44,549 nt of DNA, from the IMG/VR virus record IMGVR_UViG_2721755710_000002, one strand, 5' to 3'. The number at the start of each line of letters is the position of its first letter. Positions within the stretch are counted from its first letter, which is position 1. The notes beneath the pieces are model-generated. The model had not been told where the DNA came from, did no database searches, and saw nothing but the letters and a program-made list of their open reading frames with translations. Below, in pieces: positions 343 through 44,549 of the stretch. Both the position numbers and the translations under genes were made by a program. This DNA comes from a virus (lineage: Duplodnaviria; Heunggongvirae; Uroviricota; Caudoviricetes).

Positions 343-363
343 TTTGAACACCGTTGATATTAA

Positions 364-385: not shown

Positions 386-397
386 ACTTACGCATGG

Positions 398-985: not shown

Positions 986-2152
986 TCATTGTATAATGTA
1001 TTTGATGGAGCTTTTTCCGTCGTATTCTTTGAGATATCGACCATAGTGCCTGAAAAGCATCTCCGGCCCTTTATGCCCCATTTGAGCTGCAAGCCAAAAC
1101 AGGTTTGCTCCTCGGCTGATATGGCTGGTGGCGAATGTATGCCTGGTTTGATATGGGTTTCTGTAACGAATACCTGCTTTTCGCAATGTTGGCACCCATG
1201 CTTTTTTCCTAATTGCATCAGCACTTGCCCAAGGCTTATTGGTCTTTGGATCTTCAAAGACAGTAGTATCCTTCATGAATGTAAATGGCTTCTGATTTAT
1301 CAGCGCCAACATTGCCTCTTCTGTCAGTTCAACTTTCCGAGTACCTGCTTTTGTCTTTGTCCCTTTGATAACACCGACAACACTTGCGCTCTGGACATGG
1401 GCAGTTTTTCCAACAAAGTCGATATCACGCCATCGAAGGGCACATAATTCAGAACTACGCAGGCCTGTATGTATAGCGAACCGGAACAGATTTTCCCATT
1501 GTTTGTTTCCGGCTGCTGCTAGTAATGCATCAACTTCTGCTGGTGATAGCGGATCAACTACGTAGCTGCTTTCTGCTTCTGACTTATCACTTTGGTAGCG
1601 CGAAGCTGTTACTAACGATACGGGGTTAATTTGAAGTACCCCATCGGTCACGGCTTCATCAAGTGCTGACCGCAGGAAAGATAACTGGTTGCGAATTGTT
1701 TTTAAGGTCGTTTTCTGATTTTGAATCCACGCTTTCAGGGTTGCTGGTGTTAATTCACTTGCAGGGCAAATGTGAAGTGAGGCTAACGCACTACGGCATT
1801 TTTTATAGCCACCAATCGTAGAGGGTGAAAGTTTTCTCGTTTCGCAGATTTCAAGGTATTCGTCCAGGTACATTTTTACCGTTTTGCCTGCAGCAGCATT
1901 ACCAAAAATTTTCAAACGAGCAGAACGGGGAAAATATTCCGCATAAATGAATGTTCCCCTTTCGATCTTATTATGAATTTCGCCGAGTGTGCGCTCGGCG
2001 TATTTAATGTTCTTTGGTGTTACTTCCAGATTGGAAAGAGGCTCACGACATTTAACACCTTTGTAGGTGAAAGTTATATTGATCGTTTCGCCCTGGCGGT
2101 GTTTCCTGATTGTTACGCCGCGCGGTAGTTTGAGCAGTTTTGTCTGGCCCAT
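986..2152 (-). CDS. int: tyrosine site-specific integrase
   Basis: 388-aa ORF; C-terminal catalytic region with HTGLRSSELCALRWRDID ... TRHTFATS ... HYGRY (R, H-x-x-R and Y typical of the phage integrase family). Confidence 0.9.
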   Translation of the reverse strand: MGQTKLLKLPRGVTIRKHRQGETINITFTYKGVKCREPLSNLEVTPKNIKYAERTLGEIHNKIERGTFIYAEYFPRSARLKIFGNAAAGKTVKMYLDEYLEICETRKLSPSTIGGYKKCRSALASLHICPASELTPATLKAWIQNQKTTLKTIRNQLSFLRSALDEAVTDGVLQINPVSLVTASRYQSDKSEAESSYVVDPLSPAEVDALLAAAGNKQWENLFRFAIHTGLRSSELCALRWRDIDFVGKTAHVQSASVVGVIKGTKTKAGTRKVELTEEAMLALINQKPFTFMKDTTVFEDPKTNKPWASADAIRKKAWVPTLRKAGIRYRNPYQTRHTFATSHISRGANLFWLAAQMGHKGPEMLFRHYGRYLKEYDGKSSIKYIIQ

Positions 2153-4150: not shown

Positions 4151-4151
4151 T

Positions 4152-4185
4152 AGATACATTATGTATCTCATGGGTACATTGTCAA
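4152..4185 (-). promoter_or_regulatory. candidate leftward early promoter (pL-like) with overlapping operator palindrome
   Basis: On the minus strand: TTGACA (4185..4180), 16-bp spacer, CATAAT (4163..4158). A 17-bp perfect palindrome AGATACAT-T-ATGTATCT (4152..4168) overlaps the -10. Confidence 0.45.
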
Positions 4186-4187
4186 GT

Positions 4188-4212
4188 ATAAAAAAACCTG
4201 CCGAAGCAGGTT
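4188..4212 (-). terminator. intrinsic terminator downstream of the repressor gene
   Basis: On the minus strand: AACCTGC-ttcg-GCAGGTT stem followed by a 7-U run, 13 bp past the cI stop. Confidence 0.6.
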
Positions 4213-4224
4213 CATAAATATTGA

Positions 4225-4899: not shown

Positions 4900-4989
4900 A
4901 ACGAAATTAAAACCTTTGTACCGACAAGGTACAAGTATCTTGAAGGTTCATTTCAATCATGTAATATGTATACCGGAGGTACATATTGT
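4900..4989. promoter_or_regulatory. cI/cro intergenic region with candidate operators (oR-like)
   Basis: Palindromes TGTACC-N5-GGTACA (4917..4933) and ATATGTA-N9-TACATAT (4964..4986); GGAGG RBS in front of the cro ATG. Confidence 0.5.
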
Positions 4990-5190
4990 ATGAAAGCGTA
5001 TTGGGACTCTTTAACCAAAGAACAGCAGGGCGAGTTGGCCGGAAAAGTTGGCTCAACACCTGGCTACTTACGGCTGGTTTTCAATGGTTATAAAAAAGCC
5101 AGTTTTGTGCTGGCGAAAAAACTTGAGCAATGCACGTCAGGTGCAATTACGAAATCTGACTTAAGACCGGATATCTATCCGAAAGATTAA
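4990..5190 (+). CDS. cro: Cro-like small HTH regulator
   Basis: 66 aa from the ATG at 4990, preceded by GGAGG; divergent from cI. The ORF track starts earlier at 4885 but overlaps the cI start. Confidence 0.65.
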   Translation: MKAYWDSLTKEQQGELAGKVGSTPGYLRLVFNGYKKASFVLAKKLEQCTSGAITKSDLRPDIYPKD

Positions 5191-5221
5191 CAGAACACCT
5201 TCAATTTTTAACCACAGAACG

Positions 5222-5785
5222 ATGAGGCTAACCGTGGGTAAGTATCACTGGAAAGTAGAAAAACAGCCTGAGTGGTACGTGAAAGCTGTCAGAAAAACTA
5301 TCGCAGCGTTGCCGGGTGGTTACGCTGAAGCAGCTGACTGGCTGGATGTAACAGAGAACGCATTATTTAACCGCCTTCGTGCCGATGGCGATCAGATTTT
5401 CCCGCTGGGATGGGCAATGGTTTTACAGCGCGCGGCTGGCACTCACTACATTGCGGATGCTGTCGCACAGTCTGCTGGTGGGGTGTTCGTATCGCTTCCT
5501 GAAATTGAGGAAGTAGAGAACGCCGATATAAACCAGCGCCTGCTGGAAGTCATCGAACAGATCGGGAATTACTCAAAGCAGATTCGTTCGGCAATCGAAG
5601 ATGGGGTCGTGGAGCCACACGAGCAGACAGCAATTAATGATGAGTTGTATCTGTCAATTTCGAAGCTCCAAGAGCATGCAGCACTGGTCTACAAAATCTT
5701 TTGCGCTCCAGAAAAGAGTGACGCCCGCGAGTGTGCAGCTCCGGGCGTCGTGGCGTTTTGTGTCTGTGGAGAAACTAACGCATGA
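5222..5785 (+). CDS. hypothetical early-right protein (possibly CII/YdaT-like regulator)
   Basis: 187-aa ORF directly after cro; function assigned by position only. Confidence 0.4.
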   Translation: MRLTVGKYHWKVEKQPEWYVKAVRKTIAALPGGYAEAADWLDVTENALFNRLRADGDQIFPLGWAMVLQRAAGTHYIADAVAQSAGGVFVSLPEIEEVENADINQRLLEVIEQIGNYSKQIRSAIEDGVVEPHEQTAINDELYLSISKLQEHAALVYKIFCAPEKSDARECAAPGVVAFCVCGETNA

Positions 5786-11692: not shown

Positions 11693-11717
11693 AGGGGGAA
11701 TTACCCCCCTTTTTTTC
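11693..11717. terminator. intrinsic terminator immediately after Q, probably bidirectional
   Basis: GGGGG-aatta-CCCCCC stem followed by TTTTTTT on the plus strand; it also lies at the 3' end of the minus-strand cassette. Confidence 0.6.
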
Positions 11718-12249
11718 TCTGTTGCTTTAATAAAATTTTAATATTTTGTCTGATTATGATGAGGCAATGTAATAAAAGAAATACCGTTAGTATTGCAAGC
11801 CATACGCAAAATAAGCATGCATATAAATTAGTTGAAAGTCCAATAGTGAATTGTGCAATTGCTGTTGTGATAGAACATAATATTGATGTATTAATAAATG
11901 AGGATAAATTGTCTAAAGGTTTATAAAGTACACTATCATTGATTTTGTCAATAGGTATACCAGTGGCAATGCTATAAATTTCCTTATATTCCTGAGTTGC
12001 AAAAACCTTATCGCGTAAATTTATTATGACAAAGGTATGCAGGCTCAATAAAAATGAACCCACGGAAATAAAACCGGAGAAGAGATAGCCTCGTAAGTTT
12101 TTATGATAAAAATCAAAAAAGTTAACACTTACTTTAGGTGTGTTTCTGTACAATAGGTAAAGTGCAAGCAATGCCAGGATCGAGAATGCAAGCAGTGTAA
12201 TGTACTGATACCTCAATCTTTTATTTATTAGCCATTCATATAAAGGCAT
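11701..12249 (-). CDS. hypothetical integral membrane protein (about 4 TM helices), AT-rich cargo gene
   Basis: 182 aa with four hydrophobic segments (YITLLAFSILALLALYLLY; LFSGFISVGSFLLSLHTFVII; ILCSITTAIAQFTIGL; LYACLFCVWLAILTVFLLLHCLIII); overlaps the upstream gene by 14 nt. Confidence 0.6.
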   Translation of the reverse strand: MPLYEWLINKRLRYQYITLLAFSILALLALYLLYRNTPKVSVNFFDFYHKNLRGYLFSGFISVGSFLLSLHTFVIINLRDKVFATQEYKEIYSIATGIPIDKINDSVLYKPLDNLSSFINTSILCSITTAIAQFTIGLSTNLYACLFCVWLAILTVFLLLHCLIIIRQNIKILLKQQRKKGG

Positions 12250-13162
12250 TTTTATTCGTCCCGTTCAGCATTTCTTCTTTTATCATATCAAAAACAGGGT
12301 TTGTTGTATAATTATCGTTTGTCAATCCATTGACTTTATCGGCAATTATATCGAAATCGTATGTTTCAAAAAAAACAGGGCAGTTCATAAAATCAATGGT
12401 TTTTTCTATTCCTGCATGGTTTACTGCAATAACCTGTGCTTTAGCAACTCCACTCATAGAATTATAAATATTTGAAAGATTCTGAGATAGTTGTTGCACT
12501 TTTGTTCTGTCGCTAGAATTAAAATTCATATCTATTGTGGTGGTGTTAACAAATTGTTCAAGCGCAGTCATTGGTCCACCTTTAAAATCTATATAATTAA
12601 ATTTAAAGCTTGTGCTTTTAATCTCTTTGAATTGACATAAAACACTCTGAATGTTGTTTTTATTTGTCATAAGGCTGAAAGTCAGTCTTTCTTTGTATTT
12701 TTTATTTATTGCAGTTACTTCTTTTTGTTTTGGTTTATCACCAAGTTTTTTTATTTCTTCTTTATTTTGATTTCTGATAAATTCATTACTTATTGTTTCT
12801 AAATGAGAAAAGAGAGTGTTCAGACTGCATGAACCGTGGTGATACATATAGAGACCAGAAAGATTAGATTTTTTAATTAAGAAAAAGTTGAAATTAGCAA
12901 GTTTGTCACTTCCTTGAAGATCTTCAATTTTAAGCTGGAATTTACCATCAACAAATTGCGACTTACAGTTCTTTTTTTGGTTTCTGAATGTGACAACTAA
13001 TCCATAATAGAAATCATTCACATCCGAAATGAGAATTTTACGAGTATAGTCTGTGCGACTGTGTTCTCTGTTTGATGCGTTGATAAAAGCATTCATTACG
13101 TCAACGGTATTAATATTTTTGTTATTGTTATTTATTGTAAATCCTATGCTTCTAACTTTCAT
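12236..13162 (-). CDS. hypothetical soluble protein (308 aa), AT-rich cargo gene
   Basis: Long Lys/Asn-rich ORF antisense to the phage backbone; no Walker, HEPN, cyclase or nuclease motif recognised. Confidence 0.6.
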   Translation of the reverse strand: MKVRSIGFTINNNNKNINTVDVMNAFINASNREHSRTDYTRKILISDVNDFYYGLVVTFRNQKKNCKSQFVDGKFQLKIEDLQGSDKLANFNFFLIKKSNLSGLYMYHHGSCSLNTLFSHLETISNEFIRNQNKEEIKKLGDKPKQKEVTAINKKYKERLTFSLMTNKNNIQSVLCQFKEIKSTSFKFNYIDFKGGPMTALEQFVNTTTIDMNFNSSDRTKVQQLSQNLSNIYNSMSGVAKAQVIAVNHAGIEKTIDFMNCPVFFETYDFDIIADKVNGLTNDNYTTNPVFDMIKEEMLNGTNKNAFI

Positions 13163-17387: not shown

Positions 17388-19489
17388 TGCTGAATCAGGA
17401 AACCGCAAAGGCAGCACGAACCGATTCAGGTTATATCCTTCGCGCACCGAGACGAATGCGGGTTGCTGATGCCGTTGCTCAGTATATGCGGGTGCCCATG
17501 GGGGCAGGGAACTCAGTCCCGTGGGATCCGCTGGTGGCACCGTATGTTATTGAGCCTATGAACTGCCTGGCCTCGCGTGAATACGACGCAGTGATATTTG
17601 TTGGCCCGGCACGAACCGGCAAGACTATCGGCCTGATTGACGGCTGGGTGATTTACAACGTGATTTGCGATCCTGCTGATATGCTGATTATTCAGATGAC
17701 GGAGGAAAAAGCCCGCGAACACTCCAAAAAACGACTCGCCAGAACGTTTCGCGTCAGCCCGGAAGTGGTCAGTCGCCTGAGTCCGAACAAAAATGACAAC
17801 AACGTTTATGACAGAACATTCCTTGCTGGTAACTACCTGAAAATCGGCTGGCCGTCAGTCAATATCATGTCCTCATCAGATTATAAATGCGTCGCGCTGA
17901 CGGATTATGATCGTTTTCCGGAAGATATTGATGGCGAGGGGGATGCTTTCTCTCTTGCCTCAAAACGTACCACAACATTTATGTCCAGTGGTATGACGCT
18001 GGTGGAGAGTTCCCCCGGCAGGGATGTGAAGGATGTGAAATGGCGACGGACTTCACCGCATGAGGCTCCACCAACCACGGGGATACTGTCGCTCTATAAC
18101 CGTGGCGATCGCCGTCGCTGGTACTGGCCCTGTCCACACTGTGGTGAGTATTTTCAGCCCTGCGGCGATGTGGTTGCTGGTTTCCGTGATATTGCCGATC
18201 CCGTTCTGGCAAGTGAGGCGGCTTATATTCAGTGTCCTTCCTGTTCAGGACGGATTATGCCTGAACAAAAACGTGAGCTGAACGGACGTGGGGTCTGGTT
18301 GCGGGATGGTGAATCCATCAATGCGGATGGCAGTCGTTATGGTGATCCCCGACGCTCACGTATTGCGTCATTCTGGATGGAGGGGCCGGCAGCTGCTTAC
18401 CAGACACTCTCGCAACTCGTTTACAAACTGCTTACTGCAGAACAGGAATACGAGACAACCGGAAGTGAAGAAACACTCAAGACGGTTATCAATACCGACT
18501 GGGGATTACCTTATCTTCCCCGCGCCAGCATGGAGCAACGAAAAAGTGAACTGCTTGAGCAGCGGGCAGAGCCAGTTCCTTCCCGCAGTGTGCCGGATGG
18601 CGTTAATTTTCTTGTGGCGACAGTGGATGTGCAGGCGGGACGTCATCGCCGTTTTGTGGTTCAGGTAACGGGCTATGGCAGCCGTGGCGAACGCTGGATT
18701 ATTGATCGTTACAACATCACGCAGTCATTGCGCGGTGACTGCGACGGGGAGAGCCAGCGAATTGATCCGGCCAGCTACCCGGAAGACTGGGATGTCCTGC
18801 TGACGGATGTTTTTCATAAAAGCTGGCCGCTGGCCTCCGATCCTTCTCAACAAATGCGACTGATGGCAATGGCGGTGGACTCCGGCGGTGAAGACGGGGT
18901 CACTGATAATGCCTATAAATTCTGGCGTCGTTGCCGTCGTGATGGCCTTGGTAAACGTATTTACCTGTTTAAGGGTGACAGCATCCGGCGCGCAAAACTG
19001 ATCAGCCGTACATTCCCTGATAACACCGGACGAACGGGCCGCCGGGCGCAGGCCGCAGGTGATGTGCCGCTCTGGCTTCTTCAGACGGATGCACTGAAAG
19101 ACCGGGTGAATAACGCGTTATGGCGTGACTCGCCAGGTCCCGGCTATGTGCATTTCCCTGACTGGCTGGGGAGCTGGTTTTACGACGAACTGACGTATGA
19201 AGAGCGGAGCAGTGACGGGAAATGGAGTAAGCCGGGTCGCGGTGCCAACGAAGCTTTTGACCTGATGGTGTATGCCGAGGCTCTGGTCATTCTGCATGGA
19301 TACGAAAAGATCCGCTGGCCGGATGCACCGGAGTGGGCGAGCCGGGAAACCTGGCTGGAGTGTGTCCCGGACAGTATCGAACCGTCACCCTCACCGGAAC
19401 CGGTATCCACGCCTGTTAAAAAACAAAAACGGAAGAAAACAGTAACTGACGATGTTAACCCCTGGCTGACTTCCGGAGGATGGTTATGA
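17387..19489 (+). CDS. terminase large subunit (gpA-like)
   Basis: 700 aa; Walker A-like VGPARTGKT; position after the small subunit. Confidence 0.9.
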   Translation: MLNQETAKAARTDSGYILRAPRRMRVADAVAQYMRVPMGAGNSVPWDPLVAPYVIEPMNCLASREYDAVIFVGPARTGKTIGLIDGWVIYNVICDPADMLIIQMTEEKAREHSKKRLARTFRVSPEVVSRLSPNKNDNNVYDRTFLAGNYLKIGWPSVNIMSSSDYKCVALTDYDRFPEDIDGEGDAFSLASKRTTTFMSSGMTLVESSPGRDVKDVKWRRTSPHEAPPTTGILSLYNRGDRRRWYWPCPHCGEYFQPCGDVVAGFRDIADPVLASEAAYIQCPSCSGRIMPEQKRELNGRGVWLRDGESINADGSRYGDPRRSRIASFWMEGPAAAYQTLSQLVYKLLTAEQEYETTGSEETLKTVINTDWGLPYLPRASMEQRKSELLEQRAEPVPSRSVPDGVNFLVATVDVQAGRHRRFVVQVTGYGSRGERWIIDRYNITQSLRGDCDGESQRIDPASYPEDWDVLLTDVFHKSWPLASDPSQQMRLMAMAVDSGGEDGVTDNAYKFWRRCRRDGLGKRIYLFKGDSIRRAKLISRTFPDNTGRTGRRAQAAGDVPLWLLQTDALKDRVNNALWRDSPGPGYVHFPDWLGSWFYDELTYEERSSDGKWSKPGRGANEAFDLMVYAEALVILHGYEKIRWPDAPEWASRETWLECVPDSIEPSPSPEPVSTPVKKQKRKKTVTDDVNPWLTSGGWL

Positions 19490-21206: not shown

Positions 21207-23178
21207 TTCCTGGTTCAGGATGCAGGCTGGTCACCAGAGTGACGCGGATATTTATATTTATGACGAGATTGGTTTCTGGGGTGTTACAGCGAAGCAGTTT
21301 ATCAGTGATCTGAATGCACTGGGCGATATCACCCACATTAATCTCCATATTAATTCACCGGGTGGCGATGTCTTTGAAGGCATCGCCATTTTTAATGCGC
21401 TGAAAACACATGGTGCGTCCATTACCGTTTATGTCGACGGTGTGGCGGCGTCAATGGCGTCGGTCATTGCGATGGTGGGAAACCCGGTCATTATGCCGGA
21501 AAACACCTTCATGATGATTCATAAACCATTTGGCTTTACGGGCGGTGATGCGGAGGACATGCGCACCTATGCCGACCTGCTCGATAAAGTTGAGGCGGTT
21601 CTGTTACCCGCTTATGCACAGAAAACCGGGAAAACCACCGATGAAATTGCTGCCATGCTGGCGGATGAGACCTGGATGTCCGGTGCCGAATGTCTGGCAC
21701 ATGGATTTGCTGATCAGGTAACGCCAGCCGTTAAGGCAATGGCATGTATTCAGTCAAAACGTACAGAGGAATTTAAAAAGATGCCGGAATCCATTCGAAA
21801 CATGATTACTCCGCCACGCAACAGTGCTCCACGCGTACAGGATGATGAACCTGCAGCCTCCCGGACGCCAGTGCAGGCAGCAGCACCCGTGGTGGATGAA
21901 AACAGTATCCGTGCGCAGGTCCTGGCAGAGCAAAAAGCGCGTGTAAACGGTATTAATGATCTGTTTGCCATGTTTGGCGGGCGTTATCAGACGCTGCAGG
22001 CCCAGTGTCTTGCCGATCCTGAATGTTCGCTGGAGCAGGCCCGCGAAAAGCTGTTGAACGAGATGGGGCGCGAGTCCACGCCATCCAATAAAAATACCCC
22101 GGCTCATATTTATGCCGGTAACGGTAATTTTGTGGGGGACGGGATCCGCCAGGCGCTGATGGCGCGTGCCGGATTTGAAAAAACCGAACGTGATAATGTC
22201 TACAACGGGATGACCCTGCGTGAATATGCCCGTATGTCACTGACTGAACGGGGTATTGGGGTTTCCGGTTATAACCCGATGCAGATGGTCGGTGCGGCGT
22301 TCACACACAGTACGTCTGACTTCGGTAATATTCTGCTGGATGTTGCGAACAAAGCCATTCTGCAGGGCTGGGAAGATGCCCCTGAAACCTATGAACAGTG
22401 GACGCGGAAAGGTCAGTTGTCTGATTTTAAAATTGCCCATCGTGTGGGTATGGGGGGCTTCAGTGCTCTGCGTCAGGTGCGTGAAGGGGCGGAATATAAA
22501 TACGTCACCACCGGAGATAAACAGGCCACTATTGCACTGGCGACCTATGGCGAGCTGTTCAGTATCACCCGTCAGGCCATTATCAATGATGATCTGAATA
22601 TGCTGACCGATGTCCCGATGAAGCTGGGCCGTGCGGCGAAATCCACTATTGCCGATCTGGTTTATGCCATTCTGACGTCTAACCCGAAAATCTCCACAGA
22701 TAATGTAAGTCTGTTCGATAAAGCGAAACATGCAAACGTACTGGAGAGCGCTGCAATGGACGTGGCATCGCTGGATAAAGCCCGCCAGTTGATGCGCGTT
22801 CAGAAAGAGGGGGAGCGTCATCTGAATATTCGTCCTGCGTTCGTACTGGTACCGACGGCGATGGAGTCTGTTGCTAACCAGGTCATTCGCTCCTCAAGTG
22901 TCAAGGGGGCTGACATTAACGCCGGTATTATTAACCCGGTGAAAGATTTTGCGACCGTTATTGCAGAGCCTCGTCTTGATGATAACAGCCAGACCACCTT
23001 CTACCTGGCTGCGTCAAAAGGCTCCGATACGATTGAAGTGGCTTATCTCAACGGTGTGGATACGCCATATATTGATCAGATGGAGGGCTTCAGTGTGGAT
23101 GGCGTGACAACGAAAGTGCGTATTGACGCCGGTGTCGCGCCAGTTGATCACCGCGGTCTGGTGAAATGTACGGCGTAA
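21151..23178 (+). CDS. prohead protease (ClpP-like) fused to major capsid protein
   Basis: N-terminal ClpP/S14-like region (…IYIYDEIGFWG… / …INSPGGDVFEGIAIFNALK…) continuous with a ~400-aa capsid-like C-terminal region. Start taken as GTG at 21151 after AAAGGAGG; ATG at 21220 is the alternative. Confidence 0.65.
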   Translation: MPQRNDRSRSTPTTSPKNNSWFRMQAGHQSDADIYIYDEIGFWGVTAKQFISDLNALGDITHINLHINSPGGDVFEGIAIFNALKTHGASITVYVDGVAASMASVIAMVGNPVIMPENTFMMIHKPFGFTGGDAEDMRTYADLLDKVEAVLLPAYAQKTGKTTDEIAAMLADETWMSGAECLAHGFADQVTPAVKAMACIQSKRTEEFKKMPESIRNMITPPRNSAPRVQDDEPAASRTPVQAAAPVVDENSIRAQVLAEQKARVNGINDLFAMFGGRYQTLQAQCLADPECSLEQAREKLLNEMGRESTPSNKNTPAHIYAGNGNFVGDGIRQALMARAGFEKTERDNVYNGMTLREYARMSLTERGIGVSGYNPMQMVGAAFTHSTSDFGNILLDVANKAILQGWEDAPETYEQWTRKGQLSDFKIAHRVGMGGFSALRQVREGAEYKYVTTGDKQATIALATYGELFSITRQAIINDDLNMLTDVPMKLGRAAKSTIADLVYAILTSNPKISTDNVSLFDKAKHANVLESAAMDVASLDKARQLMRVQKEGERHLNIRPAFVLVPTAMESVANQVIRSSSVKGADINAGIINPVKDFATVIAEPRLDDNSQTTFYLAASKGSDTIEVAYLNGVDTPYIDQMEGFSVDGVTTKVRIDAGVAPVDHRGLVKCTA

Positions 23179-23264
23179 ACGTCGCAGACAACAACTCTGA
23201 TGGCCCGTAAGGGCTTTTTTTGTACCTGAAATCAGCCCCTGAACGGGGCTGTGCGGAGACAGTT

Positions 23265-23588
23265 ATGGCAAAGAATTTTGTAGAAGAAGGAAAAACGGTG
23301 GCGATTGTTGCCAGTGCAGCCATCAGCAGCGGAGATCTGGTGCAGGTGGGTGATGTTTTTGCGGTGGCGCTGACCGATATTCCACAGGGTGAAACAGGCG
23401 ACGGCATGACCGAAGGTGTGTTTATGCTGCCTAAGCTGAAAACGGATGACATGAAAACGGGTAAGAAGGTTTATCTGAAGTCCGGAAAAGTTCAGCTGAC
23501 TAACAGCGGCTCTGATCCGCTGGTCGGGGTTGTCTGGGCAGATGCCGGAACCAATGCAGAAGAAGTGCCGGTAAAACTCAATGTCTGA
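23265..23588 (+). CDS. small head-associated protein (DUF2190-like, possible decoration protein)
   Basis: 107 aa directly after the capsid gene; start at the ATG preceded by GGAGA. Confidence 0.45.
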   Translation: MAKNFVEEGKTVAIVASAAISSGDLVQVGDVFAVALTDIPQGETGDGMTEGVFMLPKLKTDDMKTGKKVYLKSGKVQLTNSGSDPLVGVVWADAGTNAEEVPVKLNV

Positions 23589-36013: not shown

Positions 36014-36024
36014 GTGGGGTGAAT

Positions 36025-39000
36025 ATGGCAGTAAAGATTTCAGGTGTACTGAAAGACGGTGCAGGTAAACCGGTACAGAACTGTACAATCCAGCTGAAAG
36101 CAAAACGTAACAGCACCACGGTGGTGGCGAACACGGTGGCCTCAGAAAATCCGGATGAAGCCGGGCGTTACAGCATGGACGTTGAGTACGGTCAGTACAG
36201 CGTTATTCTGTTGGTGGAAGGCTTCCCGCCATCGCATGCCGGGACCATCACCGTGTATGAAGACTCACAACCGGGTACGCTGAATGATTTTCTTGGTGCC
36301 ATGACGGAGGATGATGCCCGTCCGGAGGCACTGCGCCGCTTTGAACTGATGGTGGAAGAGGTGGCGCGTAACGCGTCCGCAGTGGCGCAGAACACAGCAG
36401 CCGCGAAGAAGTCAGCCAGCGATGCCAGCACATCAGCCCGTGAGGCGGCAACCCGTGCGACTGATGCTGCAGGCTCAGCACGTGCAGCCAGCACGTCAGC
36501 CGGACAGGCCGCGTCGTCGGCTCAGTCAGCGTCTTCCAGCGCAGGAACAGCATCAACAAAGGCCACTGAAGCATCAAAAAGTGCTGCCGCCGCAGAGTCT
36601 TCAAAAAGCGCGGCAGCCACCAGTGCCGGCGCAGCGAAAACGTCGGAAACGAATGCCGCAGCGTCACAAAAATCTGCGGCCACATCTGCATCCACCGCGA
36701 CCACGAAAGCGTCAGAAGCTGCCACCTCAGCCCGGGATGCGTCGGCTTCAAAAGTGGCGGCAAAATCATCAGAAACGAGCGCAGCCTCGAGCGCCGGCAG
36801 TGCAGCTTCCTCGGCAACGGCGGCAGGAAATTCCGCGAAGGCCGCAAAAACGTCTGAGACGAATGCGGATAACAGCGCACAGGCGGCAGCAGACTCACAA
36901 ACTGCATCGGCAAACTCCGCGACAGCAGCCAAAAAATCAGAAACCAACGCGAAAAATAGTGAGGCAGCAGCAAAGGTCAGCGAAACCAACGCTAAAGCGT
37001 CAGAGAACAAGGCGAAAGAATATCTCGACAAGGTCGGGGGACTCGTCAGCCCGATGACGCAATACGATTGGCCTGTTGTTACTGCTAGTGAGTCTCTTTA
37101 CATCAAGATCGCGAAACTTTCCGATCCTGGAACCAGCAGAAGTCATGTAACGCTAATGGTTACTAACGCTGGTAACTACGGCTCCCCTTACGGAAACATT
37201 GACTTTATCGAGATCTCGGCGCGCGGTCTGCCTTCTTTGCTTAGTGCGGATAATGTTTCTCGTCATCTGAGTATACGCCGCTTAGGGTCAACCGGGCTGA
37301 CCGATAACAACCAGATGCGTTACGGCCTGGTTAAAGGTGACGGCTTTATTGAGGTTTGGGCATTCCAGGGTGCGTTTATTAACGACGCAAAGGTTGCGGT
37401 GCTGGCGCAGACAACACTAAGCACAGAATTATACATCCCAGACGGATTTGTTAAGCAAACCGCCGCGCCTTCTGGATATATTGAAGGCAACGTTGTAAGG
37501 ATTTACGACCAGGTAAACAAGCCGACTAAAGCAGATTTGGGTCTTTCTAATGCTATGCTTACAGGCGCTTTCGGTCTTGGCGGTAGCGGGATATCAACAA
37601 ACGGCAAGATGAGCGATGTAGAGATCTTAAAAGCTCTGCGTGACAAAGGTGGTCATTTCTGGCGCGGTGATAAGCCGCCCGGAAGCACGGCGACCATTTA
37701 TAGCCACGGTTCTGGTATATTCTCGCGGTGCGGCGATACGTGGTCAGCGATCAATATCGACTACTCAACCGCGAAGATTAAGATCTATGCCGGCAACGAT
37801 GCCCGGCTTAACAACGGGACTTTTAGCGTCAATGAGCTATACGGCTCGGCAAACAAGCCGTCGAAATCGGATGTTGGACTTGGCAACGTAACGAACGATG
37901 CGCAGGTAAAAAAAACCGGCGATACAATGACCGGTGACTTGACAATCAAAAAAGGTACACCGTCAGTCTTCCTGCGGGCAGACAGTGGAGTCACCGCTTT
38001 GCGGTTTTATACTGGCGATAACACAGAGCGCGGCATAATTTATGCTGGTCCTAACACTGATTCGCTTGGCGAAGTTCGCATCAGGGCAAAGACAGCAGGG
38101 GGGACATCAGGAGGGGATCTTGTTGTTCGTCACGACGGGAGGGTTGAAGTCCGTGATCTCACAGTAGCGTATAAAATTAAAAGCAGAACGATTGAGATTG
38201 CAAATACCGACACTGACTCATCGGCAACTACGCTAAGCATCTATGGAGTACAGCACACGCCGTTGGTTTTAACGCGTTCTGGTTCTTCTGAAAATGTGTC
38301 CATTGGGTTTAAGTTAGACAACGTGAACCAAAAGTATCTTGGAATTGATACTAATGGGGATCTGGCTTTTGGTGAGAGTCCTGATCAGAAACAAAACAGC
38401 AAATTGATCACGCAAGCGAAACTCGACAAGGGATTAACGATTGGTGGTCAACTGGCTTTCAAAGGTACGACAGCGTTTTCAGCCGTTGCTACGTTCAGTG
38501 CCGGGATAGCAGGAGCCATCGAGCCGGAAAACATTGACGGCCAGACGGTTAATCTTAACAACCTGACCATCATCAAGTCAGATGTCGGGGCAGTTAAATA
38601 CTATATTTGTCCATCCTCTGCAGGTGGTGCAAATATTACCAATAAGCCTGACGGCATAGCCGGTAACTTTTTGCTTCGTGTAGAGTCGACTCGTAAGGTT
38701 AGGGATTCAGATTATGCGAACATGCAAACGCTGATTAACAGCGACACAAAACGTATATACGTTCGCTTTGTTGTTAATGGAAACTGGACAGCGTGGAGTC
38801 AGGTTGTTGTTTCCGGATGGAATCAGGATGTAACCGTCAGGTCGTTAACCTCGACGACTCCATCAAAATTAGGTGGCGGGCGGATTGATGTGCTTGGAAG
38901 TACTTCAGATTATGGCAGCATGAATTGTACCGTTCGTGGTGTTGATAGCACTGGAACCAATTCGGCGTGGTCGGTAGGCACATCAGAAAGCACAGGCAAA

Positions 39001-39804
39001 ATGTTGTTCCTGAAAAACCACAGAAGCAGCGCTCAAGTGCTGTTAAATGGCGATGATGGAGCGGTTCAACTACTAAGTGGCACTGTTAACGGGGCTACAG
39101 CGCAGGCGCTCACTATCAACAGGAATGAGGTTAACTCAACTGTTGATTTAACCCTTACAAAACAATCAGGGACTGGCAATCGTTTTGTTTTACAGAACTC
39201 AGGTAATGCAGAACTACCGTTTTCTGTCAGGGTGTGGGGTTCCAGTACTCGACAAAACGTTTTTGAGGTTGGTACGTCTGCTGCGTATCTGTTTTATGCG
39301 CAAAAAACAACAGACGGGCAAAACCTTACTGTAAACGGAAGTGTTAACTGCACCACACTGAATCAGTCATCAGACCGCAGACTGAAAGAAAATATCGAGA
39401 TTATCGATAACGCGACTGACGCAATCCGCAAAATTAATGGATACACGTACACGCTCAAGGAGAATGGGGCACATTGCGCCGGGGTTATAGCCCAGGAAGT
39501 TGAAGAGGCCATCCCGGAGGCCGTTGGTTCATTCATCCATTACGGTGAAGAGTTGCAAGGCCCGACCGTTGACGGCAACGAGCTACGCGAAGAAACGCGC
39601 TATCTTAATGTTGACTACGCCGCCGTGACGGGTTTACTTGTTCAGGTCGCCCGTGAAACAGATGATCGCGTTACCGCGCTGGAAGAGGAAAACACAACGC
39701 TACGTGAAAATCTGGCAACAGCAGACACCCGGATCAGCACTCTGGAAAATCAGGTAAGCGAACTGGTTGCACTTGTCCGGCAGTTAACAGGAAGCGAACA
39801 TTGA
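36025..39804 (+). CDS. stf: side tail fiber: lambda Stf-like N-terminus, Ala/Ser-rich repeats, divergent distal domain, C-terminal intramolecular chaperone (S74-like) domain
   Basis: N-terminus MAVKISGVLKDGAGKPVQNCTIQLKAKRNSTTVVANTV… matches the recalled lambda Stf; repeat region with reiterated AAKTSETNA units; C-terminal …SSDRRLKENIEII…GVIAQEV… chaperone signature from 39367. Confidence 0.85.
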   Translation: MAVKISGVLKDGAGKPVQNCTIQLKAKRNSTTVVANTVASENPDEAGRYSMDVEYGQYSVILLVEGFPPSHAGTITVYEDSQPGTLNDFLGAMTEDDARPEALRRFELMVEEVARNASAVAQNTAAAKKSASDASTSAREAATRATDAAGSARAASTSAGQAASSAQSASSSAGTASTKATEASKSAAAAESSKSAAATSAGAAKTSETNAAASQKSAATSASTATTKASEAATSARDASASKVAAKSSETSAASSAGSAASSATAAGNSAKAAKTSETNADNSAQAAADSQTASANSATAAKKSETNAKNSEAAAKVSETNAKASENKAKEYLDKVGGLVSPMTQYDWPVVTASESLYIKIAKLSDPGTSRSHVTLMVTNAGNYGSPYGNIDFIEISARGLPSLLSADNVSRHLSIRRLGSTGLTDNNQMRYGLVKGDGFIEVWAFQGAFINDAKVAVLAQTTLSTELYIPDGFVKQTAAPSGYIEGNVVRIYDQVNKPTKADLGLSNAMLTGAFGLGGSGISTNGKMSDVEILKALRDKGGHFWRGDKPPGSTATIYSHGSGIFSRCGDTWSAINIDYSTAKIKIYAGNDARLNNGTFSVNELYGSANKPSKSDVGLGNVTNDAQVKKTGDTMTGDLTIKKGTPSVFLRADSGVTALRFYTGDNTERGIIYAGPNTDSLGEVRIRAKTAGGTSGGDLVVRHDGRVEVRDLTVAYKIKSRTIEIANTDTDSSATTLSIYGVQHTPLVLTRSGSSENVSIGFKLDNVNQKYLGIDTNGDLAFGESPDQKQNSKLITQAKLDKGLTIGGQLAFKGTTAFSAVATFSAGIAGAIEPENIDGQTVNLNNLTIIKSDVGAVKYYICPSSAGGANITNKPDGIAGNFLLRVESTRKVRDSDYANMQTLINSDTKRIYVRFVVNGNWTAWSQVVVSGWNQDVTVRSLTSTTPSKLGGGRIDVLGSTSDYGSMNCTVRGVDSTGTNSAWSVGTSESTGKMLFLKNHRSSAQVLLNGDDGAVQLLSGTVNGATAQALTINRNEVNSTVDLTLTKQSGTGNRFVLQNSGNAELPFSVRVWGSSTRQNVFEVGTSAAYLFYAQKTTDGQNLTVNGSVNCTTLNQSSDRRLKENIEIIDNATDAIRKINGYTYTLKENGAHCAGVIAQEVEEAIPEAVGSFIHYGEELQGPTVDGNELREETRYLNVDYAAVTGLLVQVARETDDRVTALEEENTTLRENLATADTRISTLENQVSELVALVRQLTGSEH

Positions 39805-39987
39805 TATCCTTCAAGCTCTGAAGGAGGCTGTTCCCGGTACGTTCAGACTGTTGTTGAGCTGGAAATCGCAACGGAGGAAGAGAAAGCGTTACTGGCCGCA
39901 TGGAAAAAGTATCGGGTGTTGCTGAACCGTGTTGATACATCAACTGCACCTGATATTGAGTGGCCAGAAGAACCAGACACCGTGTAA
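39805..39987 (+). pseudogene. tfa: remnant of tail fiber assembly gene tfa (C-terminal fragment only, no start codon)
   Basis: Open frame without ATG encodes …[37 protein letters not shown], matching the recalled C-terminus of lambda Tfa. Confidence 0.6.
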
Positions 39988-40000
39988 GCAAAAAAGAAAA

Positions 40001-40037
40001 ACCGCAGACACGACGTATGCATGACGTGCTGCGGTTT
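40001..40037. terminator. long hairpin with flanking A/T runs between tfa remnant and the convergent GIY-YIG gene
   Basis: ACCGCAG…CTGCGGT stem with extra inner pairs; on the minus strand it is followed by TTTTCTTTTT. Confidence 0.55.
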
Positions 40038-40056
40038 ATGCTTATCACTTAAAGAC

Positions 40057-40875
<819 letters not shown>

Positions 40876-41236
40876 TCATTGCAAGGGCTCACAACCAGTA
40901 GTGTTGAGAAAACCATCGGAGAAATGAGGCTAAGCCTTTGAATTTACATAGTACAAAAAAGATACTTTTCCTCATAATGTGAGCTAATTTTATGTTTCGT
41001 TTGATGATTGGACCGGTCTCGAAAACCGTAGACACATAGTATGCGTTAATTTATGAACAAACTACTTGTCTGCTGTTTTTCTGTCATTAGTCGTATATAG
41101 AATGATTCTCTATGCCTAACAAAGCATCACCAGTGCTAGATTACGTTGTAGTCACTGTTTAAATATCCAGATAAAACATTTCCTTCTGGGTTGAATGAGT
41201 GATAAAGTTTCACCCATTAGACCCCTTGGAGGAATT

Positions 41237-42670
41237 ATGTCTGAATTTGAAGTGTTGGCACAGCATCTGCTGAAGGAAGCCGAGGCGGAAGAAAAGCTGC
41301 GACAGGAAAATGATAAAAAGCTTATCGAGAAAGTGCTGGAAATCTATGATCAGAAGTATGTGGCTGAATTACTGAGAAAAGTCGGAAAAAATGAGTGGAG
41401 CCGTGAAACCATTAACCGCTGGATTAATGGCAAGTGTTTACCAAAATCGTTGACTTCAGTAGAAGAGTCTCTTCTGCGTAAGATGCTACCAGAACCACCT
41501 GCAAACCATCCGGAATATGCTTTCCGCTTCATTGACTTATTTGCTGGAATTGGAGGGATACGGAAAGGTTTTGAGGCCATTGGAGGCCAGTGTGTTTTTA
41601 CCAGTGAATGGAATAAAGATGCTGTGCGTACATACAAGGCCAACTGGTTTAACGATGAACAGGTGCATAAATTCAATCTCGATATTCGGGAAGTCACGCT
41701 GAGTGATAAAACCGATGTATTGGAAACGGATGCTTATGCATATATTGATGAGCATGTGCCGGATCATGATGTGCTTCTTGCGGGGTTCCCGTGCCAGCCA
41801 TTTAGCCTTGCTGGTGTTAGTAAGAAAAACTCACTTGGTCGTGCGCATGGTTTTGAATGTGAAGCACAAGGAACACTTTTTTTTGACGTGGCACGTATTA
41901 TACGAGCAAAAAAACCGGCAATTTTTGTGCTGGAAAATGTCAAAAATCTGAAGAGCCATGATAAGGGTAAAACTTTCAAAGTCATTATGGAGACCCTTGA
42001 CGAGCTGGGCTACGAAGTTGCCGATGCTGCAGAAATGGGAAAAAACGATCCAAAGATTATCGATGGGAAGCATTTTTTGCCTCAGCATCGTGAACGCATT
42101 GTTCTGGTCGGATTTAGACGAGATCTGAATATTCACAAGGGGTTTACCTTGCGTGATATCAGTCGTTTTTATCCGGAACACCGCCCATCATTTGGTGAAT
42201 TGCTGGAGCCTGTAGTCGACAGTAAATATATACTTACGCCAAAACTATGGGAGTACCTTTATAACTACGCCAAAAAGCATGCAGCCAAGGGGAATGGTTT
42301 TGGCTTTGGGTTGGTCAATCCTGAGAATAAGGAAAGCATTGCACGCACACTTTCTGCCAGATATCACAAAGACGGATCAGAAATTCTTATTGATCGTGGT
42401 TGGGATATGGCAACGGGAGAGGCTGACTTTATGAATGAGAGTAATCAGGCTCGTCGACCACGCAGGCTGACTCCCCGAGAGTGCGCACGCCTTATGGGAT
42501 TTGAAAAACCTGGAGGGAAACCATTCCGTATTCCGGTTTCAGATACTCAGTCATATCGGCAGTTCGGTAACTCAGTTGTGGTGCCAGTATTTGAAGCTGT
42601 TGCCAGACTTCTGGAACCCTATATCCTCAAAGCTGTTTCTGCTGATGCTGGTAAGACTGGGCAGCCTTGA
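41237..42670 (+). CDS. DNA cytosine-5 methyltransferase, Dcm/M.EcoRII-like
   Basis: C5-MTase motifs [10 protein letters not shown] (I), [11 protein letters not shown] (IV), VLENVKNL (VI), [10 protein letters not shown] (X); GGAGG RBS 6 nt upstream of the ATG at 41237, giving 477 aa. Confidence 0.9.
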
Positions 42671-42704
42671 GAACATCTCCCGGCCTTTTAAGCCGGGAGT
42701 CAGC

Positions 42705-43913
42705 CTATGATAGTTCAGCGTAAAGCTCTATCAGCTCAGTAATGAATGCTCCGAGCGTTATTAATTCTTCTCTAACTGCTTCTGGGTATTTTTTATGTAA
42801 AGTTGATGGTACAACGAGTCTGACACCCGCATCTTTCATTTCTCGGTATTGTGCTGAAGAAACACCTTCTTGCAGTGTAAATAAATGTACCTGATGGATT
42901 TTATCTGCTTCATTCAGTATCTGACGCCAGCGATCTTTGCAGGTGGTCTTTACTGCCAGCATACGTAAGTTTTCTACAGGAAATTCAACGTTATGATATG
43001 CCTCTGCTGAAGGAAACAGGAAATCTGGTTTTTTATTACCTTCAGTAACTGCCTGAGTGGAGAAATGCCGTAGTCCGTGCTCGATAAAAAGCTTCTCTAG
43101 GTGAAGTTCAAGTGATTTGCCTGCCCTTGATTTACGTCGATTACTGACAGAGTTGGCTAATGCAATAAACTCATCTACAGAATCGAATCCTTTCTTAATA
43201 ATATCAAGAACATGTAATTCCTCGACGAGTAGAAAAATATCATACTCGACACGCCGACGGTCAATCAGTTGCTCATCTGGATCCTTGGAGTTTTTAGCAT
43301 AATGGCCAGCAGCATATTGAATAATTTCGTTTCCAGAAGGAAAACGCTTCTTCCAGTCTTCAGGAATAACATATTTATGATTTACTGGAGTTTGCTGAAG
43401 AGACAATCCGCCCAAAATTTGTCCGGCAGGGCCGGAAATTAGGGTTCCAGGTATGATTTCGCCAATAGCAGACTCGATGATATCCTCTTCATCGGGATTG
43501 ACGCAGACCCATATATCTACCTCGGAACAGTCAGTGTTCTGTTCGTTTAACCTGAAAGCAAGAATTGTGAGGGCTCCTGTATTTTCAGGGTTCTGTAATG
43601 GACTTCCTCTCCCCCAGCGCGTAATTCTTTTTTCGTTTCGGGTCTTACCAAAATAACGGTTGTTGTAATAAATTGCGCGTGCTTGGGTATCAGGGCAATC
43701 ATGGGATGATACATGCGCAGTAAGGAAGACTGAAGGGTTCAGTTCGCGAGTATGATTGATAGATGGAAAAAGCTTTTCAACGATATTTGAGGGGATATAA
43801 AGTCCGACCTGATGGCCACCTGTTGCGCCTGTGTCGTTTGCAGAAAGGCGTTTGATGTAGATAAAGTAATTCCCGCTTGCGATATCAAGCAGCCAGTTAT
43901 GAAAAACCGACAT
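42705..43913 (-). CDS. EcoRII-like type IIE restriction endonuclease
   Basis: ~402-404 aa; N-terminal …YIKRLSANDTGATGGHQVGLYIP… and overall sequence resemble EcoRII as recalled; convergent with the MTase. Start could be 43913 or 43919. Confidence 0.75.
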   Translation of the reverse strand: MSVFHNWLLDIASGNYFIYIKRLSANDTGATGGHQVGLYIPSNIVEKLFPSINHTRELNPSVFLTAHVSSHDCPDTQARAIYYNNRYFGKTRNEKRITRWGRGSPLQNPENTGALTILAFRLNEQNTDCSEVDIWVCVNPDEEDIIESAIGEIIPGTLISGPAGQILGGLSLQQTPVNHKYVIPEDWKKRFPSGNEIIQYAAGHYAKNSKDPDEQLIDRRRVEYDIFLLVEELHVLDIIKKGFDSVDEFIALANSVSNRRKSRAGKSLELHLEKLFIEHGLRHFSTQAVTEGNKKPDFLFPSAEAYHNVEFPVENLRMLAVKTTCKDRWRQILNEADKIHQVHLFTLQEGVSSAQYREMKDAGVRLVVPSTLHKKYPEAVREELITLGAFITELIELYAELS

Positions 43914-43990
43914 ATACATCCCTTTGTTAACATACAGTCAGGGTTAACATTTTTCCATAGTTATAGATAAGCGGCTAGGAACTTAAGGGA

Positions 43991-44017
43991 AAAACAAAAA
44001 GCCCGCATAAGCGGGCT
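43991..44017 (-). terminator. intrinsic terminator downstream of ssrA
   Basis: On the minus strand AGCCCGC-ttat-GCGGGCT followed by TTTTTGTTTTT, ~130 nt past the tmRNA 3' end. Confidence 0.6.
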
Positions 44018-44147
44018 TTTGTGTCACTCGAGAGCCGCGGCTCCTTTGCGTATCCTTTTTTGTCTCCTCACCGTCTGGTCGGTGTCCTGCTGAGACTGCT
44101 AACTTCCTGTTTTTGTTGGTGTTGTCCTTACACCGTCCAATCATGAT

Positions 44148-44510
44148 TGGTGGAGCTGGCGGGAGTTGAACCCGCGTCCGAAATTCCTACATCCTCGGTA
44201 CTACATGCTTAGTCAGTCTTTACATTCGCTTGCCAGCTGCGGACGGACACGCCACTAACAAACTAGCCTGATTAAGTTTTAACGCTTCAACCCCAGGCAG
44301 GGCTTCCACGCGATCTCTTTTGGGTTTGACCTCTCTTGATCCCCGTCCTAAGAGCGGAGGCTAGGGAGAGAGGGCTCTAAGCAGGTTATTAAGCTGCTAA
44401 AGCGTAGTTTTCGTCGTTTGCGACTATTTTTTGCGGCTTTTTACGAGGCCAACCGCCCCTCGGCATGCACCTTGGGTTTCGCAAATCCCGTCGAATCCAG
44501 AATCAGCCCC
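44148..44510 (-). ncRNA. ssrA: tmRNA (SsrA), 363 nt
   Basis: The reverse complement begins GGGGCTGATTCTGGATTCGACGGGATTTGCGAAACCCAAGGTGCATGCCGAGGGGCGGTTGGCCTCGTAAAAAGCCGCAAAAAATAGTCGCAAACGACGAAAACTACGCTTTAGCAGCTTAATAA (tag-peptide ORF …ANDENYALAA*) and ends …GGACGCGGGTTCAACTCCCGCCAGCTCCACCA. Confidence 0.9.
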
Positions 44511-44549
44511 AATGTGTAAAGGTAAGTATACCAGATTTATGAGCGCCAT

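Follow-up and report, generated by a model that had tools for sequence, protein, structure and literature searches.

Organization of the M-R locus

The window, that is, the whole 44,549-nt stretch of DNA analyzed here, carries in its right arm a gene for a Dcm/M.EcoRII-type C5-cytosine methyltransferase with an N-terminal regulatory domain (M; 41237..42670, + strand, 477 aa) and a gene for an EcoRII-type type IIE restriction endonuclease with effector and catalytic domains (R; 42705..43919, − strand, 404 aa). The two genes are convergent, with 34 bp between their stop codons, and their order, orientation, and 33–34 bp gap are as in plasmid pACN001-A. Both genes are AT-rich relative to the backbone, as the original prediction stated: M has a GC content of 44.6% and R one of 42.1%, whereas the remainder of the prophage stands at 51.6% and the structural genes at 54%.

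A hairpin with an 8-bp G+C-rich stem (CTCCCGGC / GCCGGGAG) lies between the convergent stops at 42677..42699. It folds at −18.2 kcal/mol (z-score −1.9, a modest value), and the plasmid EcoRII system retains the stem but has diverged in the flanks. This hairpin likely serves as a bidirectional transcription stop. The region upstream of M (41155..41236, + strand) is also conserved in the plasmid EcoRII system and carries an inverted repeat, CCAGA...TCTGG, as well as the ribosome-binding site GGAGG; homology to pACN001-A begins at 41155, and approximately 80 nt are near-identical up to the M ATG. Because M.EcoRII represses its own promoter once its sites are methylated (reviewed in PMC12707154), the region presumably holds the M promoter and an M autorepression site. 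Upstream of R, the region 43920..43990 (− strand) is partly conserved with the plasmid system, with TATAAC aligned to the plasmid TATAAT; the plasmid homology on this side reaches 43981, and the region is the presumed R promoter. A consensus promoter scan of 39700–44549 returned 9 promoter-like sites against 8.5 expected from shuffles, which is not above chance, and both promoters were therefore placed solely by alignment to the plasmid system.

The methyltransferase and the endonuclease

The original prediction of a Dcm/M.EcoRII-type C5-methyltransferase with all canonical motifs agrees with our analysis of M. The protein matches DNA_methylase (PF00145, 4.4e-78) and the N-terminal regulatory domain DNA_meth_N (PF18284, 6.6e-27), and it scores 927 bits against the NCBIfam Dcm subfamily model PRK10458/NF007772, for which the cut-off is 710. 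Motifs I (FAGIGG), IV (PCQ), VI (ENV), VIII (QHRER), and X (GNSV) are all present, at residues 102, 185, 233, 283, and 444, respectively. M is 91% identical to the plasmid M.EcoRII-type protein WP_001288435 and 69% identical to K-12 Dcm; in particular, the stretch between motifs VIII and X is almost unchanged relative to the plasmid enzyme. Based on these features, M is predicted to methylate the inner cytosine of CCWGG at C5. RefSeq WP_001288444.1 is identical to M. A longer M start at 41195 (491 aa) is less likely and was rejected, because GGAGG precedes 41237 by 5 nt and the plasmid allele does not preserve the 14 additional codons as coding sequence.

The convergent endonuclease, for which approximately 402 aa had been proposed, is an open reading frame of 404 aa; RefSeq places its start at 43913, which shortens it to 402 aa. 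The protein comprises an N-terminal B3-like effector domain (EcoRII-N, PF09217, 3.9e-61, residues 18–165) and a C-terminal PD-(D/E)XK catalytic domain (EcoRII-C, PF09019, 2.4e-71, residues 229–393). R aligns with the crystallized R.EcoRII (PDB 1NA6) at 3e-243 over residues 1–403 without gaps, with 347/403 residues identical (86%), and shares 87% protein identity with plasmid R. Moreover, all 27 of the 27 published catalytic, recognition, and effector residues of R.EcoRII, as listed together with the flipping pocket in PMC2770665, are kept. The four active-site residues of the variant PD-(D/E)XK motif (E271/D299/K324/E337) are identical to those of EcoRII, as are the CC:GG recognition triplet K328-D329-R330 with N260 and the base-flipping pocket R222/E225/Y226/F229/R265/A266. 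Similarly, the effector domain shows 13/13 identical contacts, which include the CCWGG readers N28, H36, Q37, Y85, R94, E96, and R98 and the phosphate contacts. The claim of an EcoRII-like nuclease thus withstood the check for a lost catalytic core or an unrelated reading frame. Given the 86% identity to R.EcoRII and the conserved residues, R would cut unmethylated /CCWGG only when at least two sites are bound, and 5mC at the inner cytosine would block cutting.

Location in an ssrA prophage

The M-R pair is cargo inside a lambdoid E. coli prophage integrated at ssrA, where it lies between the tail-fibre genes and the attachment site. The prophage tyrosine integrase (986..2152, − strand; Arm-DNA-bind_2 and Phage_integrase) is encoded at the far (attL) end and shares 87% identity with that of phage LLS, which has a 3′ fragment of tmRNA as its attP. 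Since this LLS-like integrase lies at the opposite end of the window, M and R are placed inside one ssrA-integrating prophage. Between R and ssrA, a 152-bp attachment-site arm (43996..44147) is 91.6% identical to the arm beside the annotated attP/tmRNA pseudogene of Escherichia phage LLS. This arm contains a terminator-like hairpin and T-run on the − strand (43997–44020), which appears placed to terminate ssrA transcription. The ssrA (tmRNA) gene itself (44148..44510, − strand) was identified with ARAGORN, encodes the tag peptide ANDENYALAA, and lies 228 bp past the R start; its 3′ end is the integration core (attR). The LLS attP core aligns at 44167–44186, and the RefSeq annotation at an identical locus agrees. 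Collectively, the domains, the 86% identity to R.EcoRII, and the LLS-like integrase and att arm bear out the proposal of a complete EcoRII-like restriction-modification system in the prophage right arm beside ssrA.

Neither a blastn comparison of the right end with the first 4 kb nor a pattern search allowing up to 3 mismatches found a second ssrA 3′ end in the window, and attL therefore lies outside it. The window open reading frame 260–973 shows no similarity to LLS gene 31. In a nucleotide search of the phage collection, the att arm alone matched, the hits being phages LLS and Ayreon. That collection contains no isolated coliphage record with a close homologue, and the protein search gave distant homologues only.

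The CMoRE neighbor and the mobile block

M-R is adjoined by CMoRE / PD-T4-3 (40057..40830, − strand), a GIY-YIG type IV nuclease gene that accompanies M-R in most copies. Its product matches the PADLOC PD-T4-3 model PDLC04031 (7.6e-140, residues 1–256 of 257), Pfam LEM-3_GIY-YIG, and, over its full length, the crystallized CMoRE with its GIY-YIG and modification-sensing domains (PDB 9U75; 5e-171, approximately 97% identity). CMoRE is specific for 5hmC and glucosyl-5hmC DNA and leaves C or 5mC DNA uncut (PMC12923530). The original prediction was silent on this neighbor and on the block being common, already annotated prophage cargo.

A hairpin at 39999..40037 (AAACCGCAG...CTGCGGTTT) marks the left edge of a shared CMoRE-M-R-att block, and identity with three different prophage backbones begins sharply at 39999. 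In 5/5 sampled ssrA-adjacent loci, M-R lies directly beside ssrA, and the left-hand phage is either lambdoid or an e14-like myovirus. Near paoD/yagU, a different locus, the block lies in a lambdoid prophage, and it also occurs within a circular 43.7-kb phage-only record, beside the integrase of that record. Sequence comparison thus indicates that the block moves as a unit among unrelated prophage backbones.

The 4.2-kb CMoRE-M-R segment with one att arm might constitute a discrete cargo cassette that lacks an integrase and passes from one temperate phage to another, unrelated one (lambdoid siphoviruses, e14-like myoviruses), as well as between integration loci, either through att recombination supplied in trans or through tandem lysogeny with later deletion; we consider this possible but rather doubtful. 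Three hints point to it, namely the sharp left edge at one hairpin in three backbones, att-like direct repeats of approximately 130 nt on either side of the block in a single circular phage record, and a crossover within an ssrA-like core in a copy located away from ssrA. If this reading is true, phages would gain a portable "cytosine-state" defense islet by which unmodified and hypermodified cytosine DNA is attacked and 5mC is tolerated. The fixed pairing of M-R with CMoRE and an att arm is, moreover, an example of complementary defense genes that travel together in a cargo slot by the phage attachment site.

Distribution and selection

The block that carries the M-R pair is present in 377 of the 5426 complete E. 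coli genomes (approximately 7%), ST131 isolates included, and RefSeq annotates it correctly. The M-R pair is thus real but ordinary, and it is already annotated in hundreds of genomes. We found no earlier description in the literature of an EcoRII system in an ssrA prophage; the paper on the ST131 methylome deals with EC958, a strain that has Dcm alone.

At least 80% of the query region is matched in 573 plasmid records, nearly all at 80–90% identity, which corresponds to the plasmid allele. The window M-R shares 79.6% DNA identity with this allele, and dS between them is saturated (approximately 1.6–1.7); the prophage M-R is therefore an old sister allele rather than the product of a recent plasmid transfer. 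The dN/dS values relative to the plasmid allele are 0.033 for M and 0.048 for R, the latter in both domains. Furthermore, R is intact: neither a frameshift nor a stop interrupts it in the window or in any of the 6 other translated loci, among which at most two amino acids differ. The pair is a sister allele of the type IIE system that was described first; it is common E. coli prophage cargo and holds little new biology. Yet R is under strong purifying selection in hosts with an isospecific orphan methylase, which makes it a natural case for asking what use EcoRII-type restriction has in Dcm+ enterobacteria.

Proposed working of the system

The M-R pair is very probably a functional type IIE EcoRII-family restriction-modification system, an accessory cargo lodged between the tail-fibre genes and the att site of the lambdoid ssrA prophage. 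We infer the activity and CCWGG specificity of the prophage allele from homology. M would add a methyl group to C5 of the inner cytosine of CCWGG and, as predicted from M.EcoRII (PMC12707154), would shut down its own promoter after site methylation. In the R dimer, the C-terminal domains would flip the W pair at the center of an unmethylated CCWGG site and cut the site, while the N-terminal domains would auto-inhibit the enzyme until a second, or a second and a third, unmethylated site is bound; as a result, only DNA with several unmethylated sites would be cut. The prophage itself has 94 CCWGG sites. Self DNA would be doubly protected, by M and by host Dcm, and M-R could thus enter or leave a cell without killing it. 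R would then filter out DNA that comes from sources without Dcm or that is left under-methylated when replication is fast. Together with CMoRE, the islet would treat 5mC at CCWGG as "self" and attack both unmodified and hypermodified cytosine DNA.

The original prediction also assigned to the pair the restriction of incoming unmethylated DNA. This role is plausible, but it is narrow, because DNA from Dcm+ enterobacteria is already protected. A dcm-like gene is present in 5366 of 5426 complete E. coli genomes (approximately 99%), so most incoming E. coli DNA is already protected, and the benefit behind the strong purifying selection on R is for this reason not explained here.

Alternative explanations

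The suggestion that M-R acts as an addiction module stabilizing the prophage fared less well. By this account, loss of the prophage would dilute M, leftover R would cut the newly replicated chromosome, and cured cells would die. EcoRII post-segregational killing is indeed documented, an unstable M mutant strengthens it (PMC3874152), and the pair is complete and under purifying selection. However, a second M-like gene was found in 60/60 of the best carrier chromosomes sampled, a result that rests on genomes with an identical block since the window excludes the dcm locus. This gene is taken to be chromosomal dcm; in non-carrier genomes, a match of approximately 69% identity is annotated as dcm. 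A host with no other isospecific methyltransferase was thus not encountered among the 60 sampled carriers. Dcm shares the CCWGG specificity and attenuates host killing after EcoRII loss (reviewed in PMC3874152), and the block has moved among prophages and loci, evidently gained and lost without lethal cost. Because host Dcm protects the same sites, M-R is unlikely to be an addiction module in its native host, and we give this account a low probability. The same host Dcm makes R dispensable for survival, and orphan methyltransferases are common on prophages (PMC4659465), which would fit a decayed or silent system in which R is inactive and M is a second orphan-like Dcm that alters the epigenome or shields phage DNA from EcoRII-bearing hosts. 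Such decay is very improbable given the intact, nearly invariant R at all seven loci, the low dN/dS in both of its domains, the retention of every catalytic and DNA-contact residue, and an upstream region partly conserved with that of the active plasmid system.

The position of M-R directly beside ssrA in all five sampled ssrA-adjacent loci, whatever the left-hand phage, might instead mean that M-R is a chromosomal islet fixed beside ssrA, alongside which prophages merely insert. The 152 bp between R and ssrA, however, correspond to the attP arm in phage LLS, a sequenced virion genome, the window integrase is close to that of LLS, and the block occurs both in the circular phage-only record, next to its integrase, and in the lambdoid prophage near paoD/yagU; there is accordingly little chance that the islet account is correct. 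Least probable of all, to the point of being nearly negligible, is a shift in recognition, for example to CCNGG as in SsoII/Ecl18kI, through the 14% (R) and 9% (M) divergence from EcoRII. The pockets of EcoRII-C, PspGI, and Ecl18kI are very similar, and discrimination between W and N is subtle (PMC2770665, PMC2577355). Nevertheless, both R domains agree with EcoRII at every listed base-contacting and pocket residue, including the effector readers of the central T:A pair (N28, Q37, Y85, R98), and M is near-identical to the plasmid enzyme between motifs VIII and X. Moreover, a CCNGG-cutting R with a CCWGG-only M and Dcm would be lethal.

Comparison with known systems

The closest relative of the prophage pair is the plasmid EcoRII system (R.EcoRII, PDB 1NA6/3HQF/3HQG; M.EcoRII). 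Both have genes of the same lengths (404/477 aa), the convergent order, the hairpin, and homologous upstream regions; protein identity is 86–87% for R and 91% for M, and the characterized residues are all identical. In contrast, the plasmid system resides on conjugative plasmids, while the window allele, at 79.6% DNA identity, resides on prophages. K-12 Dcm (with Vsr) shares with M the fold, the N-terminal domain, the NCBIfam subfamily, and the expected CCWGG target at 69% identity; it is, however, an orphan overlapped by vsr with no partner nuclease, whereas M is paired with R and lacks vsr. With 91% identity to M.EcoRII against 69% to Dcm, M clearly stands nearer to the former.

Burkholderia phage KL3, a temperate phage whose genome encodes an EcoRII-family nuclease, provides a precedent for phage carriage. 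In this case, the C-terminal catalytic domain alone was matched (residues 171–397, 39%), with no effector match, and the host is unrelated. PspGI, Ecl18kI, and SsoII (CCWGG, CCNGG) share the catalytic fold, base flipping, and the K/D/R triplet (PMC2770665) with R at marginal but significant similarity (E about 1e-4); unlike R, they have no N-terminal effector domain and are not type IIE enzymes.

Gene pair and its relation to EcoRII

Based on the ORF analysis, the methyltransferase gene M (41237..42670, + strand) encodes 477 aa, and the convergent endonuclease gene R (42705..43919, − strand) encodes 404 aa, or 402 aa in RefSeq, where the identical gene is started two codons later. The 34 bp between the two stop codons contain a G+C-rich hairpin of 8 bp (42677-42699). 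Both genes are AT-rich, with G+C contents of 44.6% for M and 42.1% for R, against 51.6% for the rest of the prophage and 54% for its structural genes. The adjoining tmRNA gene, ssrA (44148..44510, − strand), is intact as called by ARAGORN and encodes the tag peptide ANDENYALAA. The original prediction was thus right in all its descriptive elements: the ORFs, their convergence, their AT-richness, and the adjoining ssrA. A strong hairpin with a T-run (43997-44020, − strand) lies just 3′ of the ssrA end, in DNA derived from the phage; transcription of the reconstituted tmRNA gene therefore appears to stop at a terminator provided by the prophage.

M contains the Pfam domains DNA_methylase (4.4e-78) and, at the N-terminus, DNA_meth_N (6.6e-27), scores 927 bits against the NCBIfam Dcm cut-off of 710, and has motifs I, IV (PCQ), VI (ENV), VIII, and X. 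Its identity to the 477-aa methyltransferase from the EcoRII system on plasmid pACN001-A is 91%; in contrast, M and the plasmid enzyme are each 69% identical to K-12 Dcm. Collectively, these results bear out the assignment to the Dcm/M.EcoRII type. In C5-methyltransferases, the target-recognition domain sits between motifs VIII and X. Since this stretch of M is nearly unchanged from the plasmid enzyme, the sequence strongly indicates CCWGG specificity.

R contains the Pfam domains EcoRII-N (3.9e-61) and EcoRII-C (2.4e-71). Its best match among solved structures is R.EcoRII (PDB 1NA6, E = 3e-243), aligned without gaps over residues 1-403 of both proteins with 347 of 403 identical (86%) and 56 differences. 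The difference at position 88 may reflect the crystal form rather than divergence: 1NA6 is presumably the R88A mutant, and both the plasmid allele and the window have Arg there. The functional residues were taken from the list of Golovenko et al. 2009 (PMC2770665), namely, the active site (E271, D299, K324, and E337), CC:GG recognition (K328, D329, R330, and N260), the base-flipping pocket (R222, E225, Y226, F229, R265, and A266), and the effector-domain contacts with bases (N28, H36, Q37, Y85, R94, E96, and R98) and phosphates (Y41, R81, K92, T93, T100, and R101). All 27 of these 27 residues are identical in R; the predicted relation to EcoRII therefore holds, and the catalytic core is intact.

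The plasmid system also has the same gene order, orientation, and spacing. At the nucleotide level, window and plasmid are homologous from 41155 to 43981 (79.6%), an interval that includes approximately 80 near-identical nt upstream of M that end in a GGAGG ribosome-binding site, the stem of the intergenic hairpin, and 60-70 nt upstream of R. By the Nei-Gojobori method, dN/dS between the alleles is 0.033 for M and 0.048 for R at a dS of 1.6-1.7, which is near saturation, and both R domains are under constraint. Moreover, no stop or frameshift was found in R in the window and six other translated loci, which differ by at most two amino acids. Collectively, these results indicate that both genes have stayed functional since they diverged long ago from the plasmid allele.

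Restriction and host background

As reported, EcoRII is inactive on a single site and requires an additional CCWGG bound by its effector domain; if the inner cytosine is 5mC, the effector domain no longer binds and cleavage drops by four to five orders of magnitude (PMC2770665). By homology, multi-site DNA arriving unmethylated would be cut by the prophage system; the targets would be DNA out of Dcm-negative hosts or DNA replicated too fast for full methylation. CCWGG occurs 94 times in the window, where base composition predicts 87, which makes the prophage a good substrate in the unmethylated state.

The original prediction also proposed an addiction module that stabilizes the prophage, and the host background contradicts this proposal. 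A sensitive search with the M gene found a match in 5366 of the 5426 complete E. coli genomes; in non-carriers, this match is approximately 69% identical and annotated dcm. Each of the best 60 carrier chromosomes matched twice, at the prophage M and at another M-like gene, taken to be dcm. Dcm attenuates host killing upon EcoRII loss because both recognize CCWGG (Mruk and Kobayashi, PMC3874152), and the native-host chromosome would therefore be protected without the prophage M. Addiction in the native host should be weak or absent. According to a review, M.EcoRII shuts down its own promoter when its sites carry methylation (PMC12707154); M should therefore be self-repressed, and R should be expressed without control by M. 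With Dcm methylation already in place, arrival of the R gene in a new cell would involve no lethal lag, which would answer the question of how a host dcm of the same specificity bears on acquisition.

Position in the prophage and neighboring genes

The tyrosine integrase at the left end of the window (986..2152, − strand) is 87% identical to that of Escherichia phage LLS, whose annotated attP is a tmRNA 3′ fragment. The 152-bp interval between R and ssrA (43996-44147) is 91.6% identical to the arm beside attP in the LLS virion genome, and in the identical RefSeq locus, the genes for J, Lom, tail fibre, and tail-fibre assembly lie directly to the left. As predicted, the pair therefore lies beside ssrA in the right arm, where it fills the cargo slot of a lambdoid, ssrA-integrating prophage, with tail-fibre genes on one side and the attachment site on the other. 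attL was not found in the window and must lie left of position 1.

Several other features of this prophage were observed. The tail fibre (36019-39804, + strand; 1261 aa) ends in an S74 intramolecular-chaperone domain, while the otherwise near-identical ssrA prophages L001 and L009 have a different, 1023-aa fibre; only a C-terminal fragment of the tail-fibre assembly gene (39842-39987) follows it. On the attL side beyond the integrase, 1-973 (+ strand, 35% GC) contains two overlapping ORFs, the first with a DUF4325 (STAS-like) domain and the second (237 aa) without a match in Pfam, NCBIfam, or PADLOC; LLS has an unrelated gene at this position, which thus looks like another variable cargo slot. 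Mid-prophage, in a patch of very low GC (31%), an overlapping ORF pair of 182 and 308 aa (11701-13162, − strand), opposite in strand to its neighbors and without Pfam or PADLOC matches, looks like an uncharacterised moron.

The gene adjoining M (40057..40830, − strand; 257 aa) matches the PADLOC model PD-T4-3 over its full length (7.6e-140), and its protein is approximately 97% identical to the crystallized CMoRE of E. coli O157:H7 (PDB 9U75), a recently characterized GIY-YIG nuclease. CMoRE is a type IV enzyme that binds and degrades DNA with 5hmC or glucosyl-5hmC, spares ordinary cytosine or 5mC, and protects against T-even phages (Liu et al. 2026, PMC12923530), and it can therefore coexist with methylation of the M.EcoRII type. 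It is present beside the pair in the window and in six of seven other loci examined, and it would complement R, which is predicted to act against unmodified CCWGG DNA, by acting against DNA with hypermodified cytosine.

Modularity of the right end

Comparisons with other loci revealed three nested blocks. The largest, from CMoRE through the attachment-site arm (39999-44147 and beyond), is 98-99.7% identical across copies in lambdoid prophages, e14-like myovirus prophages (with baseplate J/gp47, YmfQ, and PinE genes), and a circular, phage-only record of 43.7 kb. The middle block (M, R, and arm; 41014-44147) is shared with the ssrA prophage of strain ST95-32 (NZ_CP043950.1) at 99.9% identity; there, an alpha/beta hydrolase gene and a small ferredoxin gene (4140-5377 in comparison locus L008) replace CMoRE, and the slot left of M is thus itself variable. 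The core (41155-43981) is shared with plasmids.

The largest block has a sharp left boundary, which coincides with one hairpin (39999-40037) in three distinct prophage backbones. R, arm, and ssrA are contiguous in only 128 genomes, compared with 377 that have the block. In one sampled exception, a single strain, a lambdoid prophage at a non-ssrA locus, near paoD/yagU, carries the block; there, identity with the window ends inside the ssrA-like core and then continues as in the circular record. In that record, direct repeats of approximately 130 nt, 76% identical and each with arm, core, and hairpin, flank the block. These features map to 39999-44175 in the window, 19012-19140 and 23165-23303 in comparison locus L002, and 9701-9860 in L010. 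Collectively, the hairpin edge, the flanking att-like repeats, and the crossover in the ssrA-like core suggest that right-end cargo accumulates, is captured, or is exchanged through att-site recombination.

Comparison with known systems

At least 80% of 40900-44147 is present in 377 of the 5426 genomes, many copies being 100% identical, and carriers annotate the pair as "DNA cytosine methyltransferase" and "type II restriction endonuclease". The M gene at an identity of at least 99% occurs in 262 records, and the exact M and R proteins are in RefSeq (WP_001288444.1 and WP_000110239.1). The classic EcoRII allele is found in the plasmid collection, where 573 records cover 80% or more of the query; most of these plasmids are conjugative, and nearly all match at 80-90% identity. 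The phage collection held no close homologue in isolated coliphage records, and the nearest phage precedent is Burkholderia phage KL3, which carries an EcoRII-C-like gene. No published description of this prophage allele turned up in the literature search. The pair thus belongs to a textbook system as a conserved and widespread allele with existing annotation, to which the pairing with CMoRE and the apparent att-linked cassette behavior add modest value.
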